Positions 2,597 through 8,006 of a stretch of DNA of 8,006 nucleotides are shown here, in pieces. The DNA comes from a virus. Its lineage: Duplodnaviria > Heunggongvirae > Uroviricota > Caudoviricetes. How positions within the stretch are numbered: the first letter of the stretch is position 1; every line of letters starts with the position of its first letter. A program made the position numbers and the translations under genes. The notes beneath the pieces are model-generated. The model was not told where the DNA came from. It saw only the letters and a list, made by a program, of their open reading frames with translations, and did no database searches. The stretch lies in IMG/VR virus record IMGVR_UViG_2585427795_000008, one strand, 5' to 3'.

Positions 2597-2757
2597 ACAG
2601 CTCCCCGTTTATTATTTATCTCCTCAGCCAGCCGCTGTGCTTTCAGGGGATTTCGGGTAACAGAAAGGCCGGGAAATACCCAGCCTCGCTTTGTAACGGA
2701 GTAGACGAAAGTGATCGCGCCTACCCGGATATTATCGTGAGGATGCTTCATCGCCAT
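2569..2757 (-). CDS. Lambda orf60a-like small protein
   Basis: 62 aa ORF whose ATG overlaps the exo stop (ATGGCGATGA), indicating translational coupling. Position and sequence match my recollection of lambda orf60a. Confidence 0.65.
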
Positions 2758-3428
2758 TGCTCCCCAAATACAAAACCAATTTCAGCCAGTGCCTCGTCCA
2801 TTTTTTCGATGAACTCCGGCACCATCTCGTCAAAACTCGCCATGTACTTTTCATCCTGCTCAATCACGACATAATGCAGGCCTTCACGCTTCATTCGTGG
2901 GTCATAGTTGGCAAAGTACCAGGCATCTTTTCGCGTCACCCACATGCTGTACTGCACCTGGGCCATGTAAGCCGATTTTATTGCCTCGAAACCACCGAGC
3001 CGGAATTTCATGAAATCCCGGGAGGTAAACGGGCATTTCAGTTCAAGGCCGTTGCCGTCACTGCATAAACCATCGGGAGAGCAGGCGGTGCGCATACTTT
3101 CGTCGCGATAGATGATCGGGGATTCAGTAACATTCACGCCGGAAGTAAACTCAAACAGGGCTCTGGCGTCGTTCTCGTACTGTTTTCCCCAGGCCAGTGC
3201 TTTAGCGTTAACTTCCGGAGCCACACCGGTGCAAACCTCGGCAAGCAGGGTGTGGAAGTAGGACATTTTCATGTCAGGCCACTTCTTTCCTGAGCGGGGC
3301 TTTGCTATCACGTTGTGAACTTCTGAAGCGGTGATGACGCCGAGCCGTAATTTGTGCCATGCATCATCCCCCTGTTCGACAGCTCTCACGTCGATCCCGG
3401 TACGCTGCAGGATAATGTCCGGTGTCAT
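2748..3428 (-). CDS. exo: Lambda exonuclease (Red alpha)
   Basis: 226 aa protein [40 protein letters not shown]... is essentially lambda Exo as I recall it. Start ATG overlaps the bet stop (ATGA). Confidence 0.97.
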
Positions 3429-4210
3429 GCTGCCACCTTCTGCTCAGTGGCTTTCTGTTTCAGGAATCCGAGAGCTTTCACTGCTTCGGCCTGTGTCAGT
3501 TCTGACGATGCGCGAATGTCGCGGCGAAATATCTGGGAACAGAGCGGCAATAAGTCGTCATCCCATGTTTTATCCAGGGCAATCAGCAGAGTGTTAATCT
3601 CCTGCATGGTTTCATCGTTAACCGGAGTGATGTCGCGTTCCGGCTGACGTTCTGCAGTGTATGCGGTATTTTCGACAATGCGCTCGGCTTCATCCTTGTC
3701 ATAGATACCAGCAAATCCGAAGGCCAGACGGGCACACTGAATCATGGCTTTATGACGTAACATCCGTTTGGGATGCGACTGCCACGGCCCCGTGATTTCT
3801 CTGCCTTCGCGGGTTTTGAATGGTTCGCGGCGGCATTCATCCATCCACTCGGTAACGCAGATCGGATGATTGCGGTCCTTGCGGTAAATCCGGCATGTGC
3901 AGGATTCATTGTCCTGCTCAAAGTCCATACCATCAAACTGCTGGTTTTCATTGATGATGCGGGACCAGCCATCAACGCCCACCACCGGAACGATGCCGTT
4001 CTGCTTATCAGGGAAGGCGTAAATTTCTTTCGTCCACGGATTAAGGCCGTACTGGTTGGCGACGATCAACAATGCGATGAACTGCGCATCGCTGGCATCA
4101 CCTTTAAATGCCGTCTGGCGAAGAGTGGTGATCAGTTCCTGTGGGTCGACAGAATCCATGCCGACACGTTCAGCCAGCTTCCCTGCCAGCGTTGCGAGTG
4201 CTGTACTCAT
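3425..4210 (-). CDS. bet: Lambda Bet (Red beta) single-strand annealing protein
   Basis: 261 aa protein [66 protein letters not shown]... matches lambda Bet as I recall it. Confidence 0.97.
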
Positions 4211-4215
4211 CCGTT

Positions 4216-4512
4216 TTATACCTCTGAATCAATATCAACCTGGTGGTGAGCAATGGTTTCAACCATGTACCGGATGTGTTCTGCCATGCGCTCCTGAAAC
4301 TCAACATCGTCATCAAACGCACGGGTAATGGCTTTTTTGCTGGCCCCGTGGCGTTGCAAATGATCGATGCATAGCGATTCAAACAGGTGCTGGGGCAGGC
4401 CTTTTTCCATGTCGTCTGCCAGTTCTGCCTCTTTCTCTTCACGGGCGATCTGCTGGTAGTGACGCGCCCAGCTCTGAGCCTCAAGACGATCCTGAATGTA
4501 ATAAGCGTTCAT
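4216..4512 (-). CDS. gam: Gam (GamS form), RecBCD inhibitor
   Basis: 98 aa protein [60 protein letters not shown]... matches the lambda GamS portion. The in-frame upstream extension hits a stop at 4567-4569 after only 18 codons, so the 138 aa long form is not encoded. Confidence 0.95.
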
Positions 4513-4587: not shown

Positions 4588-4998
4588 TTAGTGATTGAGG
4601 CCGTTACCGCGTCCGTCGAGAAAAACTTCCACGAGCAAATCACGGGTATAAGTGCGCTCGATGCCGCGATGCAGATAAAGCCGTCCGCGTAAATTAGCTG
4701 ATGCAGTCCAGGTACCATCTTTGTGTTTGACCAGCATTCCTGGCATGACCGCACCGCGATTAACGGTCTGCGTTCCGTAATGTTGATGAACCATAAAAAC
4801 TCCTGCCCGTAAGCTGGGCTGCTGAACATATAGAGACTTCTGCGCGTATTCAGGCGGTGGATGGCCGCCGGTTGTCATAACTAAGCCGCCTCGTTGAAGC
4901 GACTGAGGTATAAAGTGTTGTGTTGATTTCAGCTGGTCACACCGACGTTCACGCGTCCGTTTCACCCCTCGCACTCCCCGAAGCCTGCTGAAATTCAA
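4588..4998 (-). CDS. Hypothetical protein at the N position (first ORF leftward of PL); start uncertain
   Basis: 136 codon open frame on the operon strand between the predicted PL and gam. The 5'-most start is TTG (4996-4998); internal ATGs at residues 41 and 69. N-terminal stretch is Arg-rich ([15 protein letters not shown]), loosely like the arginine-rich motif of N antiterminators, but the rest shows no similarity I recognise. Confidence 0.35.
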
Positions 4999-5071
4999 AC
5001 TGCGGATCTAAGCGGTCATCGCCACGGTGAAACAGGTGGTTACCGTATCGTTGTGTCGTTGCGATGAATTT

Positions 5072-5100
5072 ATTTAAAACTATAGTTGTTTTATCGTCAA
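5072..5100 (-). promoter_or_regulatory. PL-like early-left promoter
   Basis: Minus strand reads TTGACG (plus 5095-5100), a 17-nt spacer, then TTAAAT (plus 5072-5077). The region is near-identical to the PR promoter/operator (PR: GTTGTTGACTAAAAACAACCATAGTTTTAATCT; PL minus strand: GTTGTTGACGATAAAACAACTATAGTTTTAAATA). Confidence 0.5.
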
Positions 5101-5128
5101 CAACAAAAGTTGTTTTGTCGGTTGTTTT
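5085..5128. promoter_or_regulatory. OL operator cluster (repressor-binding inverted repeats)
   Basis: GTTGTT-N8-AACAAC at 5085-5104, AACAAC-AAAA-GTTGTT at 5099-5114, and a further GTTGTTTT at 5121-5128. Same half-site as the OR palindrome. Confidence 0.5.
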
Positions 5129-5240
5129 AAATATAACTGGTTGTATTTAGGATGGATTTATTTTGTGACTTGCATCGCATAGCGATAACTGAAGTGAGGT
5201 GTGGTGGTTTTTTGGACGGTATGAGTTATGAGGGGGAGGA

Positions 5241-5266
5241 AAAGAAAACCCGGCGCGGTTGCCGGG
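5241..5266 (-). terminator. Intrinsic terminator downstream of the lipoprotein gene (end of the immunity transcript)
   Basis: CCCGGC-GCGGTT-GCCGGG hairpin at 5249-5266; on the minus strand it is followed by TTTTCTTTTCC. Lies 8 nt past the lipoprotein stop codon. Confidence 0.6.
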
Positions 5267-5274
5267 TATGATTA

Positions 5275-5655
5275 TCAGTCAGCCCAACCTGATTTCGAGT
5301 TTATTTGGGTTTCTGACATTGTGTATTTCTTAATCGTGTCATCGTTAAAAAGAATAGTAAGTTCTTTTTTCGTACCGTTCGTTCCATTATGGAATAATCC
5401 ATAGAATGGAATAAAAGTGGTGCCATTAACTTTTACTTTTGCAAAGGCGTACTTCCAGATCTCGTTTCCACTGTCAGTATATGAAACAGCATCAGGAGAA
5501 CCAAAGTAAGATTTAACCTCATTCTTGGTTGTTTTACCTTCCTGAAGTTTAGACTGGACACTAATTTCAGTTTCATTTTTGAGTTGCTGGTTGCCTGAAG
5601 AAGCACACCCAGCCAATACAGATGCCATCATGGCAGCGATTAGGATTTTTCTCAT
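5275..5655 (-). CDS. Prophage lipoprotein with BamE/SmpA-OmlA-like domain, at the rex position
   Basis: 126 aa ORF with ATG start. Signal peptide MRKILIAAMMASVLAGC has a lipobox (LAG|C). Mature domain motifs GKTTKNEVKSYFGSPDAVSYTDSGNEIWKYAF and ELTILFNDDTIKKY resemble the BamE pattern (GMTQQQVAYALGTP...GTNTWFYVF...TLTLTFNSSGV). Region 5270-5880 is markedly AT-rich compared with its flanks. Confidence 0.8.
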   Translation of the reverse strand: MRKILIAAMMASVLAGCASSGNQQLKNETEISVQSKLQEGKTTKNEVKSYFGSPDAVSYTDSGNEIWKYAFAKVKVNGTTFIPFYGLFHNGTNGTKKELTILFNDDTIKKYTMSETQINSKSGWAD

Positions 5656-5884
5656 TTTATGTTTCCATTCATTATAATCAGAAACATCTTAACATAATGA
5701 TTCGAAATAAAAACCGCTACGAGATAGGGGGACATTTTGCTGACAGTAGCAACAAATCTCAGCTAACAACGAGAATATTTACTGAAATATGCAAACAGAT
5801 TTGGCGTTCTTATAGAGAATTTAGTGCAATATCTAATCCGAGTGGTATAAACCTTAACCTTCGCTCCCTTAAGTCGTAGATAAA

Positions 5885-6574
5885 TTAACCATGCTTCCTG
5901 TACGTCTGCGGCATGCTTCCAATGACCTTACCGAATATGAACACCCGGTTCATCTCGTCTTTCTCGATCGGGTCCCACGGCGAGTAGCTCTTGTTATCAG
6001 AGATAACCAGCAGCTTATCCTTCATCATTTGAAGACGTTTTACATGGGCAGTGTCGTCGTACAGAAACGCATAGATGCCATCACCGTCGAAAGATTTAAC
6101 AGTGATATCAACGAACAGCAGGTCACCTGGTTCGATCGTCCCTGACATGCTGTCACCTCGCACGTTAATGATGCGGATATTTTCCGCCTTCCTGCCATCG
6201 AACATGTGACGAGCATCGTCAAACGAGTACTCAACCGAGCGTAGAACTTCTACAAACTCACGGTTGATTACACCTGGCCCGGCACTGACTTCTATATCAA
6301 GAACGTCAATTTTGAAGTATTTGGAATGGCTGACAGTTGATTGTATTGGTTGCACTGTACTGTCTGACATATTTCCAACGCCAGAAGATAACCATTCTGC
6401 GCGCACACCCAAAGCGTTCGCGATCTCCACGATTTTAGTTGTTTGGTTAGCTTTCCCTGTTTCGATTTTCTGAATAGCAGCTTGGCTAACCCCGACCAAA
6501 TCCCCAAGCGCCTTTTGTGTAAGGCCTCGCGCTAATCTGGCTTCTTTAAGTCTTTCTGAGAGTGTTGTTTTCAT
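5885..6574 (-). CDS. cI-type prophage repressor (XRE HTH plus S24 LexA-like autopeptidase domain)
   Basis: 229 aa ORF. N-terminal HTH (LTQKALGDLVGVSQAAIQKIETGK), Ala-Gly candidate cleavage site (VSAGPG), and C-terminal S24 motifs (RGDSMSGTIEPGDLLFVD with the Ser, and a VKRL Lys). Divergent from the cro-like gene across an operator region. Not lambda cI by sequence. Confidence 0.92.
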   Translation of the reverse strand: MKTTLSERLKEARLARGLTQKALGDLVGVSQAAIQKIETGKANQTTKIVEIANALGVRAEWLSSGVGNMSDSTVQPIQSTVSHSKYFKIDVLDIEVSAGPGVINREFVEVLRSVEYSFDDARHMFDGRKAENIRIINVRGDSMSGTIEPGDLLFVDITVKSFDGDGIYAFLYDDTAHVKRLQMMKDKLLVISDNKSYSPWDPIEKDEMNRVFIFGKVIGSMPQTYRKHG

Positions 6575-6580
6575 AGATCA

Positions 6581-6609
6581 AATGTACAACCAAGGTTTTA
6601 TTTCATCAA
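6581..6609 (-). promoter_or_regulatory. Candidate PRM-like maintenance promoter for the repressor
   Basis: Minus strand TTGATG (plus 6604-6609), 17-nt spacer, TACATT (plus 6581-6586), ending about 6 nt before the repressor ATG. This would give a near-leaderless transcript as for lambda PRM. Confidence 0.35.
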
Positions 6610-6615
6610 ACGAAA

Positions 6616-6640
6616 ATGGTTGTTGACTAAAAACAACCAT
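6616..6640. promoter_or_regulatory. OR operator (perfect 9-bp inverted repeat)
   Basis: ATGGTTGTT-GACTAAA-AACAACCAT, overlapping the PR -35. Same half-site as the OL copies. Confidence 0.6.
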
Positions 6641-6651
6641 AGTTTTAATCT
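6623..6651 (+). promoter_or_regulatory. PR-like early-right promoter
   Basis: TTGACT (6623-6628), 17-nt spacer, TAATCT (6646-6651). Followed by a GGAGG SD and the cro-like ATG at 6679. Confidence 0.6.
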
Positions 6652-6678
6652 TGATTCGGATTAACCACGGAGGTTGTT

Positions 6679-6909
6679 ATGAACCCAGCAATCAAAACAG
6701 CGATCAATATCGTTGGTTCACAAAAGAAACTAGGCGATGCCTGCGAAGTTTCACAGCAGGCCGTCTATAAGTGGCTTCACAACAAAGCAAAGGTATCCCC
6801 TGAACATGTCGGCAGCATTGTTACGGCTACTGGTGGAGTTGTGAAGGCATACCAGATTCGCCCGGATCTTCCGAAGTTGTTTCCACACACCGAAAAGAAC
6901 GCAGCTTAA
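6679..6909 (+). CDS. Cro-like HTH regulator (YdaS/Cro family)
   Basis: 76 aa ORF with ATG and a GGAGG SD, divergent from the repressor. HTH-like segment (KLGDACEVSQQAVYKWLHNK) typical of Cro/YdaS-type proteins. Confidence 0.85.
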   Translation: MNPAIKTAINIVGSQKKLGDACEVSQQAVYKWLHNKAKVSPEHVGSIVTATGGVVKAYQIRPDLPKLFPHTEKNAA

Positions 6910-6921
6910 ATTTCCATTTCA

Positions 6922-6934
6922 CGCTCTTTAACAA
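6922..6934 (+). promoter_or_regulatory. boxA-like element (nutR position)
   Basis: CGCTCTTTAACAA lies between the cro-like and YdaT-like genes. It matches the boxA consensus of lambda nut sites (CGCTCTTA) and rrn operons (TGCTCTTTAACAA). No clear boxB hairpin follows. Confidence 0.45.
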
Positions 6935-6978
6935 TAAGCAATCAACTTAACAGTCAATTCAAACTAAAGGAGTCAATT

Positions 6979-7518
6979 ATGCAACCACTTACATACCAAC
7001 AGACTAGCGGATTTATTCCGACTGCGGTGATAAATCGTTCTCAAACAAAACAAGCTCCAGGCCACGAAAAAATCCGTGATGCCGTCCGCGCCTGGTCGGC
7101 TGTAGATAATCAGGATGTCGTTGCCGCACTCATTGTGAATGAGTATCGGGAGCAGGGCGACGGCACCATCGATTTCCCTGATGATGTCAGCCGTGCACGC
7201 CAGAAGCTGTTCCGCTTCCTCGATAACAAATTCGATTCTGAAAAATACCGAAATAACGTGCGTGAACTGACCCCGGCAATTCTGGCGGTACTACCGCTGG
7301 AATATCGCGGTTACCTGGTTGAGCAGGATAGCTTCATGACTCGGTTGGCTGAAATGGAAAAGGAACTCAGTGAGGCAAAACAGGCTGTCATTCTCAACGC
7401 ACCACGCCACCAGAAACTGAAGGAAATGAGTGAAGGTATTGTGTCGATGTTTCGTGTGGACCCGGATCTGGCTGGTCCATTAATGGCGATGGTGACCACC
7501 ATGCTGGGGGCAATATGA
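6979..7518 (+). CDS. YdaT-like protein at the cII position
   Basis: 179 aa ORF with ATG and an AAGGAG SD. The segment LTPAILAVLPLEYRGYL resembles E. coli Rac YdaT (IPAILAILPRELRHRL) as I recall it; NEYREQGDGTIDFP resembles EEYLRQGGGELPLVP. Not lambda cII. Confidence 0.75.
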   Translation: MQPLTYQQTSGFIPTAVINRSQTKQAPGHEKIRDAVRAWSAVDNQDVVAALIVNEYREQGDGTIDFPDDVSRARQKLFRFLDNKFDSEKYRNNVRELTPAILAVLPLEYRGYLVEQDSFMTRLAEMEKELSEAKQAVILNAPRHQKLKEMSEGIVSMFRVDPDLAGPLMAMVTTMLGAI

Positions 7519-7577: not shown

Positions 7578-7588
7578 CGGCTTTGTTG

Positions 7589-8006
7589 AATAAATCAGAT
7601 TTCGGGTAAGTCTCCCCCGTAGCGGGTTGTGTTTTCAGGCAATACGCACGCTTTCAGGCATACCTGCTTTCGTCATTTTGTTCAGCGCTCGTACCAGGGC
7701 CATAGCCTCCGCAACCTGACCATCGTAGTCACGCAGCGTCAGTGAACCCCCGAACAGCTGTTTTACCCGGTACATCGCCGTTTCCGCTATCGAGCGACGG
7801 TTGTAATCTGTTGTCCATTTCCACCGCGCATTACTCCCGGTCATTCGCTGATTAGCCACTGCACGGTTACGGTCTGCATATTCACCGGGCCAGTAACCCG
7901 CACCTTTTCGGGGAGGGATAAGGGCGCTGATTTTCTTACGCCGCAGTTCATCGTGACAGAGCCGGGTGTCGTAAGCGCCGTCTGCCGATGCTGCCCTGAT
8001 TTTTCT
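7589..8006 (-). mobile_element. IS903-group (IS5 family) insertion sequence, partial; continues past the window end
   Basis: Terminal inverted repeat GGCTTTGTTGAATAAATC at 7589-7606 matches the IS903 end as I recall it. It is followed by the C-terminal part of a transposase on the minus strand. Confidence 0.8.
7635..8006 (-). CDS. IS903-group transposase, C-terminal fragment (N-terminus lies outside the window)
   Basis: Frame is open from the window edge: ...RKISAASADGAYDTRLCHDELRRKKISALIPPRKGAGYWPGEYADRNRAVANQRMTGSNARWKWTTDYNRRSIAETAMYRVKQLFGGSLTLRDYDGQVAEAMALVRALNKMTKAGMPESVRIA. This is the typical IS903-group C-terminus. The ORF track shows only the part from an internal Met (7635..7859). 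Confidence 0.88.
   Translation of the reverse strand, partial: RKIRAASADGAYDTRLCHDELRRKKISALIPPRKGAGYWPGEYADRNRAVANQRMTGSNARWKWTTDYNRRSIAETAMYRVKQLFGGSLTLRDYDGQVAEAMALVRALNKMTKAGMPESVRIA

Follow-up and report, generated by a model that had tools for sequence, protein, structure and literature searches.

Control Regions of the Immunity Switch

The 8,006-nt stretch of viral DNA analyzed here (IMG/VR record IMGVR_UViG_2585427795_000008, Caudoviricetes; hereafter, the window) comprises the left arm and the immunity region of a lambdoid prophage. The repressor gene cI (5885–6574, minus strand) encodes a 229 aa protein with helix-turn-helix and S24 domains, and diverges from cro (6679–6909, plus strand), which encodes a 76 aa protein of the YdaS/P22-Cro type (Pfam YdaS_toxin, E = 7e-17). 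Between them lies a putative tripartite right operator (OR) that overlaps the predicted rightward promoter PR and repressor promoter PRM, and a second cluster, the left operator (OL; OL1 from 5075 and OL2 from 5099), covers a PR-like promoter, PL, facing kil-gam-bet-exo. As a first-pass annotation of this DNA had proposed, the OL/PL and OR/PR control regions flank an operon of cI plus a cargo gene and follow one shared promoter design. Taken as a whole, the evidence makes it quite probable that a DLP12-like lambdoid prophage has its immunity switch here, and that this switch uses dyads of the phage 434 type, in which two half-sites are separated by four base pairs (N4), with three such dyads at OR and two at OL.

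As read from the sequence, PR (6623–6651, plus strand) consists of a −35 hexamer TTGACT (6623–6628), a 17-nt spacer and a −10 hexamer TAATCT (6646–6651), and would serve cro and cII. PL (5100–5072, minus strand) consists of TTGACG (5100..5095), 17 nt and TTAAAT (5077..5072), and would serve kil-gam-bet-exo leftwards; an 18-nt spacer with the −10 TAAATA, one base on, is equally possible. The −35 hexamers and the 17-nt spacer were found where the first-pass annotation had placed them, and the near-identity over about 30 bp that it described was borne out, as PR and PL agree in 28 of 31 aligned columns with one 1-nt gap, from GTTGTTGAC through GTTTTAA. A repeat finder returned this similarity as a 19-nt arm with 95% complementarity. 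In a few prophages of the same immunity type (L097, L102, L124, and L087), single bases differ within the PR hexamers (window positions 6625, 6627, and 6650), turning the −35 TTGACT into TTAACT or TTGATT and the −10 TAATCT into TAATAT; such changes would represent natural promoter-strength variants.

PRM (6609–6581, minus strand) was predicted divergent from PR, with a −35 TTGATG (6609..6604), a 17-nt spacer and a −10 TACATT (6586..6581), and the predicted starts of the two promoters are about 84 bp apart. Because the PRM −10 ends 6 nt ahead of the ATG, transcription probably starts at the A of the cI start codon (6574), that is, the cI mRNA would be leaderless. Leaderless repressor mRNAs are made from lambda cI and from paaR2 of the prophage CP-933P (PMC8630535).

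Probable Operator Dyads at OR and OL

The GTTGTT and AACAAC repeats that had been reported to overlap PR and PL are present, and far above chance. The repressor binding unit is most likely the 16-bp dyad AACAAC-N4-GTTGTT rather than a wider palindrome. At OR, dyad OR1 (6632–6647, AACAAC-CATA-GTTTTA) lies between the PR −35 and −10, with its last two bases, TA, opening the −10; OR2 (6609–6624, AACGAA-AATG-GTTGTT) shares 2 nt of its right end with the PR −35 and abuts the putative PRM −35 with its left end; and OR3 (6585–6600, TACAAC-CAAG-GTTTTA) falls in the PRM spacer, with the cI start codon following 11 nt downstream. At OL, OL1 (5075–5090, AACAAC-TATA-GTTTTA on the minus strand) is placed between the PL −35 and −10, and OL2 (5099–5114, AACAAC-AAAA-GTTGTT) shares 2 nt of its promoter-proximal end with the PL −35. 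Measured from centre to centre, the steps are 24 bp (OR3–OR2), 23 bp (OR2–OR1), and 24 bp (OL1–OL2).

OL2 matches the consensus exactly, whereas OR1 and OL1 deviate from it at two positions each. The dyad has a 14-bp core, ACAAC-N4-GTTGT, whose 5 + 4 + 5 bp layout corresponds to the contact geometry of 434, where, in operators of 14 bp, the repressor contacts the outer 5 + 5 bp and leaves the central 4 bp free, with conservation in the outer 4 + 4 (ACAA/TTGT) (PMC1636474). OL2 contains the 434-type ACAA-N6-TTGT, and the other four sites depart from these eight outer positions at one or two of them. With up to two mismatches allowed, the window has five matches to AACAAC-N4-GTTGTT, where 300 first-order Markov simulations gave an expectation of 0.5 and a maximum of 3, and all five matches fell in the OL/OR control regions. 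The 48-kb genome of Escherichia phage PhiR26_1 gave a similar picture, with five of seven such matches inside OL/OR, and the top five scores of a position weight matrix in that genome belonged to OR1, OL1, OL2, OR3, and OR2.

The window also holds wider inverted repeats, which had previously been taken as the operators. The perfect 9-bp palindrome claimed for OR is present as ATGGTTGTT (6616–6624) and AACAACCAT (6632–6640) around the 7-nt spacer GACTAAA (6625–6631), and at OL the two repeats with 8- and 4-nt spacers, GTTGTT(5085)-N8-AACAAC(5099) and AACAAC(5099)-N4-GTTGTT(5109), were both found. The two geometries are nested, as adjacent N4 dyads always yield N7/N8 palindromes: 16-bp sites at steps of 23 or 24 bp leave a gap of 7 or 8 bp between the facing inner halves of two neighbours. 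The GTTGTT-N7/8-AACAAC palindromes would then be junctions of neighbouring dyads (OR2/OR1 for N7 and OL1/OL2 for N8), a reading that we consider probable as part of the account given above. The half-sites in the N7/N8 arrangement are oriented the opposite way, with their centres 13–14 bp apart. The perfection of the 9-bp palindrome would follow from the preferred centre of the dyad, YA|TR, as in AACAAC-TATA-GTTGTT, because near-consensus neighbours have complementary inner halves and complementary adjacent central bases. In relatives, 7–9 of the 9 palindrome positions match, tracking the central bases.

Hence the hexamer GTTGTT/AACAAC stands as the half-site, and what changes is its pairing: the relatives, the polymorphism, and the homology to 434 described below all favor AACAAC-N4-GTTGTT as the unit. 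Instead of one OR site in the form of a wide palindrome, three N4 dyads at OR and two at OL, spaced by 23–24 bp, would be the binding sites.

Conservation and Phasing of the Half-Sites

Relatives were collected by tblastn of phage records and by a scan of one genome per species, and came from Klebsiella, Providencia, Salmonella, Erwinia, Kosakonia, Enterobacter, Morganella, Photorhabdus, Xenorhabdus, Serratia, and others. In 18 loci from more than 12 genera, whose repressors carry the helix [VI]SQAAIQKIE, three dyads precede the repressor gene and the N4 spacing is constant, with steps of 24–25 bp from OR3 to OR2 and 23–24 bp from OR2 to OR1. OR1 takes the form xACAAC-N4-GTTTTA in these 18 relatives, the degenerate left half of OR2, AACGAA, recurs in most relatives, and an OR3 counterpart, TACAAC-N4-GTTxTx, stands at an equal distance from the ATG in every homologue with the helix [VI]SQAAIQKIE. 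At OL, five relatives of the ACAAC type carry a pair of strong dyads with a 24-bp step. In relatives, the counterpart of the PR −10 (TATTCT, TATTAT, TATATT, or TATAAT) always begins at the TA of OR1, and that of the PRM −10 is TAnnnT from the TA of OR3, 6 nt before the ATG.

Within the immunity type, 86 loci with an identical cI N-terminal domain provided 22 OR and 23 OL variants, the OL being available in 81 loci. Only 1 of 60 columns was variable in the half-sites of the five dyads, compared with 37 of 113 other intergenic columns (p = 4e-7), while the central N4 (5/20) did not differ from the latter (p = 0.6). In detail, the half-sites of OR1, OR3, and OL1 are invariant and just central positions vary (6640 and 6641; 6593; and 5081 and 5082, respectively), OR2 has one singleton variant at 6610, and OL2 shows no variation.

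These data bear on whether GTTGTT-N7/8-AACAAC itself, with 9-bp arms at OR, might be the operator of a single dimer or a tetramer. OR would then offer one site, over the PR −35, and OL two to three that overlap. In favor of such a reading, the perfect palindrome 6616–6640 and the exact hexamer pairs starting at 6619 (N7) and 5085 (N8) each occur once against about none expected; moreover, the palindrome arms are invariant in the 86 loci, and in several relatives they stay palindromic over 8–9 bp despite a changed sequence, e.g., ATAGTTGTT...AACAACTAT. That extension to 8–9 bp is, however, accounted for by the central preference YA|TR of the dyad. The OR2–OR1 step is 23–25 bp across phage relatives, so that the gap between the arms is 7, 8, or 9 bp (8–9 bp in PA28 and HK639), and within the immunity type the O104:H4 prophage (L012) has gained an A (N7 to N8) and another locus has lost one base, changes that would be intolerable for a single dimer. 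With 13–14 bp between them, the hexamer centres do not share a face of the helix, and dimers of the 434 family use head-to-head 5 + 4 + 5 sites (PMC1636474). Further, six additional half-sites that a wide palindrome does not use, and therefore leaves unexplained, are just as conserved (1/36 variable columns against 37/113, p = 1e-4). Finally, homologues with the same helix are preceded by isolated N4 dyads: at rdgA-type loci of Pectobacterium and at L025 and L044, a single TACAAC-N4-GTTGTx lies 11 nt upstream of the ATG, and the N7/N8 palindrome is absent at these loci. The wide palindrome is thus an improbable operator, and the N4 dyad is retained as the binding unit.

A role for the inverted repeats as hairpins in RNA or DNA (for instance, a terminator or attenuator at 6616–6640) in place of protein sites is still less credible. 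A terminator scan did report a 6616–6640 hairpin on both strands, with 9 pairs, a loop of 7 and T-rich sequence behind it, but only 3 of the 9 pairs are G–C, the loop length varies within the immunity type, and the element spans the −35 upstream of the PR start, so that it falls outside the PR transcript. On the OL side, the PL leader (4790–5066, minus strand) folds no better than shuffled sequences (z = 0.41), and the window gave no Rfam match at E ≤ 1.

A third OL operator found no support in the polymorphism among the 81 loci of the same immunity type. The GTTGTT at 5121–5126, which had been counted among the overlapping sites as the third at OL, was rejected, since it varies freely at 5122, 5124, and 5125 in prophages of the same immunity. 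The other candidate considered, AATATA-ACTG-GTTGTA (5130–5145), was rejected as well, as its left half and centre vary freely in the 81 loci and just GTTGTA (5140–5145) is kept; a weak site at a similar spacing occurs in a Providencia phage.

The cI and Cro Proteins

The cI N-terminal domain matched Pfam HTH_3 (E = 5e-13) and the C-terminal domain Peptidase_S24 (E = 1.2e-18), the LexA-like self-cleavage domain, for which UmuD and LexA were the matches in the PDB. The S24 domain implies that induction would be RecA-dependent. Against PDB sequences (phmmer), the N-terminal domain was related to the 434 repressor over residues 5–68 (E = 4.5e-9) and to 434 Cro (E = 2.7e-7), and P22 c2 reached just E = 0.1. 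By our count from the alignment, 24 of 64 aligned residues are identical to the 434 repressor, and the equivalents of 434 Q28 and Q17 are kept. The recognition helix reads SQAAIQK in cI and TQQSIEQ in 434, and because of this difference the protein is, as judged from its sequence, a relative of the 434 repressor with a distinct immunity specificity and not one of 434 immunity.

Protein and operator change together in the family. The repressors of PA28 and HK639 carry SQPAIQK and their dyads read ATAAC-N4-GTTAT, with the A/P position of the helix aligned to 434 Q29. The Cro helix VSQQAV resembles the cI helix and becomes SQPAV in the relatives with ATAAC/GTTAT operators, that is, the Cro helices show a parallel A/Q-to-P change. 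None of these dyads was found in relatives with the helix VAQPTIWRL.

Two related prophages, PhiR5_1 and PhiR34_1 (L003 3501–4256 and L004 1991–2746), are annotated with a cI that is 66 nt longer (756 nt), leaving 38 bp before cro and running through OR3 and OR2. Since the 690-nt form, which is the PGAP and PhiR26_1 reading, fits the conserved OR3/−10 spacing much better, the additional 66 nt probably reflect an error of annotation.

Several points weigh against the account of a 434-type switch with five N4 dyads. Its support comes from sequence, homology, and conservation. Within the window alone, the choice of phasing is a matter of parsimony, and the discrimination comes from the relatives; the polymorphism counts refer to columns among related sequences, which are not independent events, and the conservation of the GTTTTA half of OR1 could partly reflect the overlapping −10. 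A consensus promoter scan missed PR and PL, whose −10 hexamers agree with the consensus at just 3–4 of 6 positions (3/6 for PR). Three of the residues that contact bases in 434 differ in cI (Q29 to A, S30 to A, and Q33 to K), and the docking on DNA may differ accordingly.

A Candidate Fourth Dyad Upstream of cro

One more dyad, AACCAC-GGAG-GTTGTT (6663–6678), covers the cro Shine-Dalgarno sequence and ends at the cro ATG. Were it a true operator, OR would have four working sites, and cI and/or Cro bound there would block PR transcripts after their start or occlude the cro translation signals at the DNA level. The dyad has a single mismatch to the consensus, and sites with up to one mismatch are expected 0.03 times per window; only 1 of its 16 columns is variable (p = 0.04), and the form xACnAC-GGAG-GTTxTx recurs in about 15 relatives from several genera, in which the leader upstream is unconserved. 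Mismatches in the potential RNA stem are uncompensated in the sequences of relatives, a pattern that favors a site acting at the DNA level over a hairpin in the transcript. In CP-933P, four equally spaced palindromes occupy the cI–cro intergenic region (PMC8630535). However, the centre of the candidate is the Shine-Dalgarno sequence itself and its right half is the spacer to the ATG, so that translation would constrain both anyway, and the left half has a modest information content, with position 4 free here and invariant in OR1 and OR3. Its spacing from OR1 is not fixed (27–31 bp), and the score of 9.5 bits lies within the background range of the phage genome. A fourth working site is therefore conceivable, although we lean against it.

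A site for the CII-like protein YdaT was considered near PR, in TTGATT-CGGATT-AACCAC (6652–6669), just downstream of the PR −10 and overlapping the left half of the fourth dyad. It resembles the CP-933P site TTGATT-N6-AATCAA (PMC9986795), with agreement at 4 of 6 positions of the second half. It was set aside, as the YdaT site of CP-933P sits at the end of ydaS and not at PR (PMC9986795) and 6653–6660 is polymorphic.

Proposed Operation of the Switch

A dimer of the self-cleaving, LexA-type cI would bind the 16-bp AACAAC-N4-GTTGTT dyads. On OR1 and OR2, cI would shut PR and could stimulate PRM, the centre of OR2 being about 42 bp from the predicted cI start; OR3, occupied by excess cI or by Cro, would turn PRM off. 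The YdaS-type Cro is expected at the same sites as cI, its recognition helix being similar. On OL1/OL2, cI would silence PL, over which OL2 and OL1 appear arranged exactly as OR2 and OR1 over PR, and this shared operator layout would be the reason why PL resembles PR. The hairpin at 5248–5267 (minus strand) is predicted to end the cI–lipoprotein transcript before it reaches OL.

Gene Content of the Window and the Cargo Slot

The remaining genes follow the lambdoid order. On the minus strand lie int (1–1143), exo (2748–3428), bet (3425–4210), gam (4216–4512), and kil (about 4588–4965), and the YdaT-type cII (6979–7518) follows cro on the plus strand. The cargo gene downstream of cI (5275–5655, minus strand) encodes a lipoprotein, with the lipobox LAGC in its open reading frame; PGAP names it BamE, and its match to Pfam BamE is weak (E = 1.6e-4) and below the curated cut-off. 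Behind it, a terminator scan found the terminator-like hairpin with T-run at 5248–5267 (minus strand), of 7 pairs, 6 of them G–C, followed by TTTCTTTT. Positions 4900–7000 of the window are 100% identical to PhiR26_1 (PV340555.1), whose matching genes are annotated as Kil, putative lipoprotein, cI, Cro, and cII.

A complete E. coli genome carries this element beside tRNA-Arg (argU) and intD, because of which the prophage is taken as an intact relative of the K-12 remnant DLP12. Among 5426 complete E. coli genomes, 1524 (~28%) have the cI–OR–cro segment, O157:H7 and O104:H4 strains being among them. The window diverges from PhiR26_1 from position 7580 on, within the replication gene O, and past this point an open reading frame (7635–7859, minus strand) is, by reading of its translation, the C-terminus of an IS5-type transposase. 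Because an insertion sequence sits in its replication gene, this prophage copy is probably defective.

The slot between cI and OL (window 5115–5884; also seen in L002–L004, L011–L013, and L082–L161) is a hot spot for cargo. The distance from OL2 to OR falls into at least nine size classes, from 981 bp (no cargo) through 1476 bp (the window, with the lipoprotein) to about 1735, 1793, 1880, 2239, 2352–2363, 2422, and 2590 bp. Annotated cargos include GevT/GevA (PhiR47_2, O157:H7), HipA/HipD-like proteins (PhiR5_1), and RexA/RexB (a Klebsiella phage).

Between PL and kil, neither the open reading frames nor the PhiR26_1 annotation gave an N gene. No nut or put element was recognized downstream of PL, where the lack of an Rfam match is to be read with the proviso that put RNAs may not be in Rfam. 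The leader from PL to kil (window 4795–5066, minus strand) is about 100–270 nt long, depending on the correct kil start, and put-like antiterminator RNAs are annotated downstream of PL in the relative HK639.

Comparison With Known Switches

The prophage shares with 434, which has the closest solved relative of its cI DNA-binding domain, the 5 + 4 + 5 geometry, the outer ACAA/TTGT with a variable central 4 bp, and the mutual similarity of the cI and Cro recognition helices. Unlike in 434, conservation extends to the fifth and sixth half-site positions (AACAAC), only two sites are clear at OL where 434 has three each at OR and OL, and Cro and CII are of the YdaS/P22-Cro and YdaT types.

In lambda, repressor at OR2 activates PRM from about 42 bp and rexAB occupies the slot between cI and OL. 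The tripartite OR with 23–24 bp between centres, the divergent PR and PRM with their predicted starts about 84 bp apart, the predicted position of OR2 relative to the cI start, the probably leaderless cI, the position of the cargo slot, and the self-cleaving S24 repressor are like those of lambda. The DNA-binding domain is, in contrast, unrelated in sequence, the sites are of 16 bp and not 17 bp, only two OL sites are conserved where lambda has three, and neither an N gene nor a nut element was recognized downstream of PL.

CP-933P resembles the prophage in that cargo follows the gene of a cI-like repressor, Cro is of the YdaS type and CII of the YdaT type, PL is like PR, and the repressor gene is leaderless (PMC8630535, PMC9986795). 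Its PL933P shares identical −35 and −10 hexamers with its PR, and the cI-like and Cro-like proteins repress this promoter ~100-fold; the study of CP-933P also noted the same difficulty in telling overlapping "inverted repeats" from "operators" (PMC8630535). Repressor and operator sequence differ between the two systems, the consensus half in CP-933P being GTTTAGTAA; its repressor PaaR2, of about 15 kDa, is without the S24 domain that cI has here, and its sites were footprinted and reporter-tested (PMC8630535), whereas the present ones are predicted.

The identical helix VSQAAIQKIE, together with a TACAAC-N4-GTTGTA dyad 11 nt upstream of the ATG, is found in Pectobacterium loci (L017–L029) that we take to be rdgA/rdgB. 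RdgA of Pectobacterium is a cI-like, RecA-responsive repressor of rdgB and pectin lyase. The homologue in phage phiEt88 (L008) is annotated as rdgA. Unlike OR and OL of the prophage, the Pectobacterium regulator is chromosomal and domesticated, with isolated dyads; judged by helix and dyad, it looks like a domesticated relative of the prophage repressor. The Pectobacterium loci also have a second dyad about 105 bp away and a Mor-like gene downstream.

Implications

The architecture is that of lambda and 434, an ordinary textbook-style switch, and the accepted picture of lambdoid switches is unchanged. Within the incomplete coverage of the literature, full-text search found no paper with the exact operator strings from PR and PL and none that describes the operators of this immunity type, and nothing relevant on the PhiR26/ECOR prophages or on GevT/GevA/PD-lambda-1 was found in the literature searched.

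The useful outcome is a corrected phasing of the operators together with precise binding predictions. With four bases between the half-sites, cI is predicted to bind a lone AACAACTATAGTTGTT, and not a lone GTTGTTGACTAAAAACAAC with scrambled flanks. A correct definition of the operator lets annotation pipelines recognize the switch and supplies the right oligonucleotides for binding studies, and the correct phasing predicts mutual immunity among prophages. The slot between cI and OL is a place to seek prophage-borne defence or toxin-antitoxin genes that are expressed in the lysogen.

More tentatively, and with a rather doubtful outlook, the dyad at 6663–6678 may be a working operator, where bound cI or Cro would form a roadblock to the first early gene after initiation, which is a level of control missing in lambda and 434. 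In the same tentative vein, cross-regulation could occur in a shared cell between these prophages and chromosomal regulators of the RdgA type, since RdgA of Pectobacterium is identical in its recognition helix and is preceded by the same dyad. For the family as a whole, these prophages form a natural series for the change of specificity of a 434-like helix, in which the one-residue change from A to P goes with the change from ACAAC to ATAAC, in cI and Cro together.

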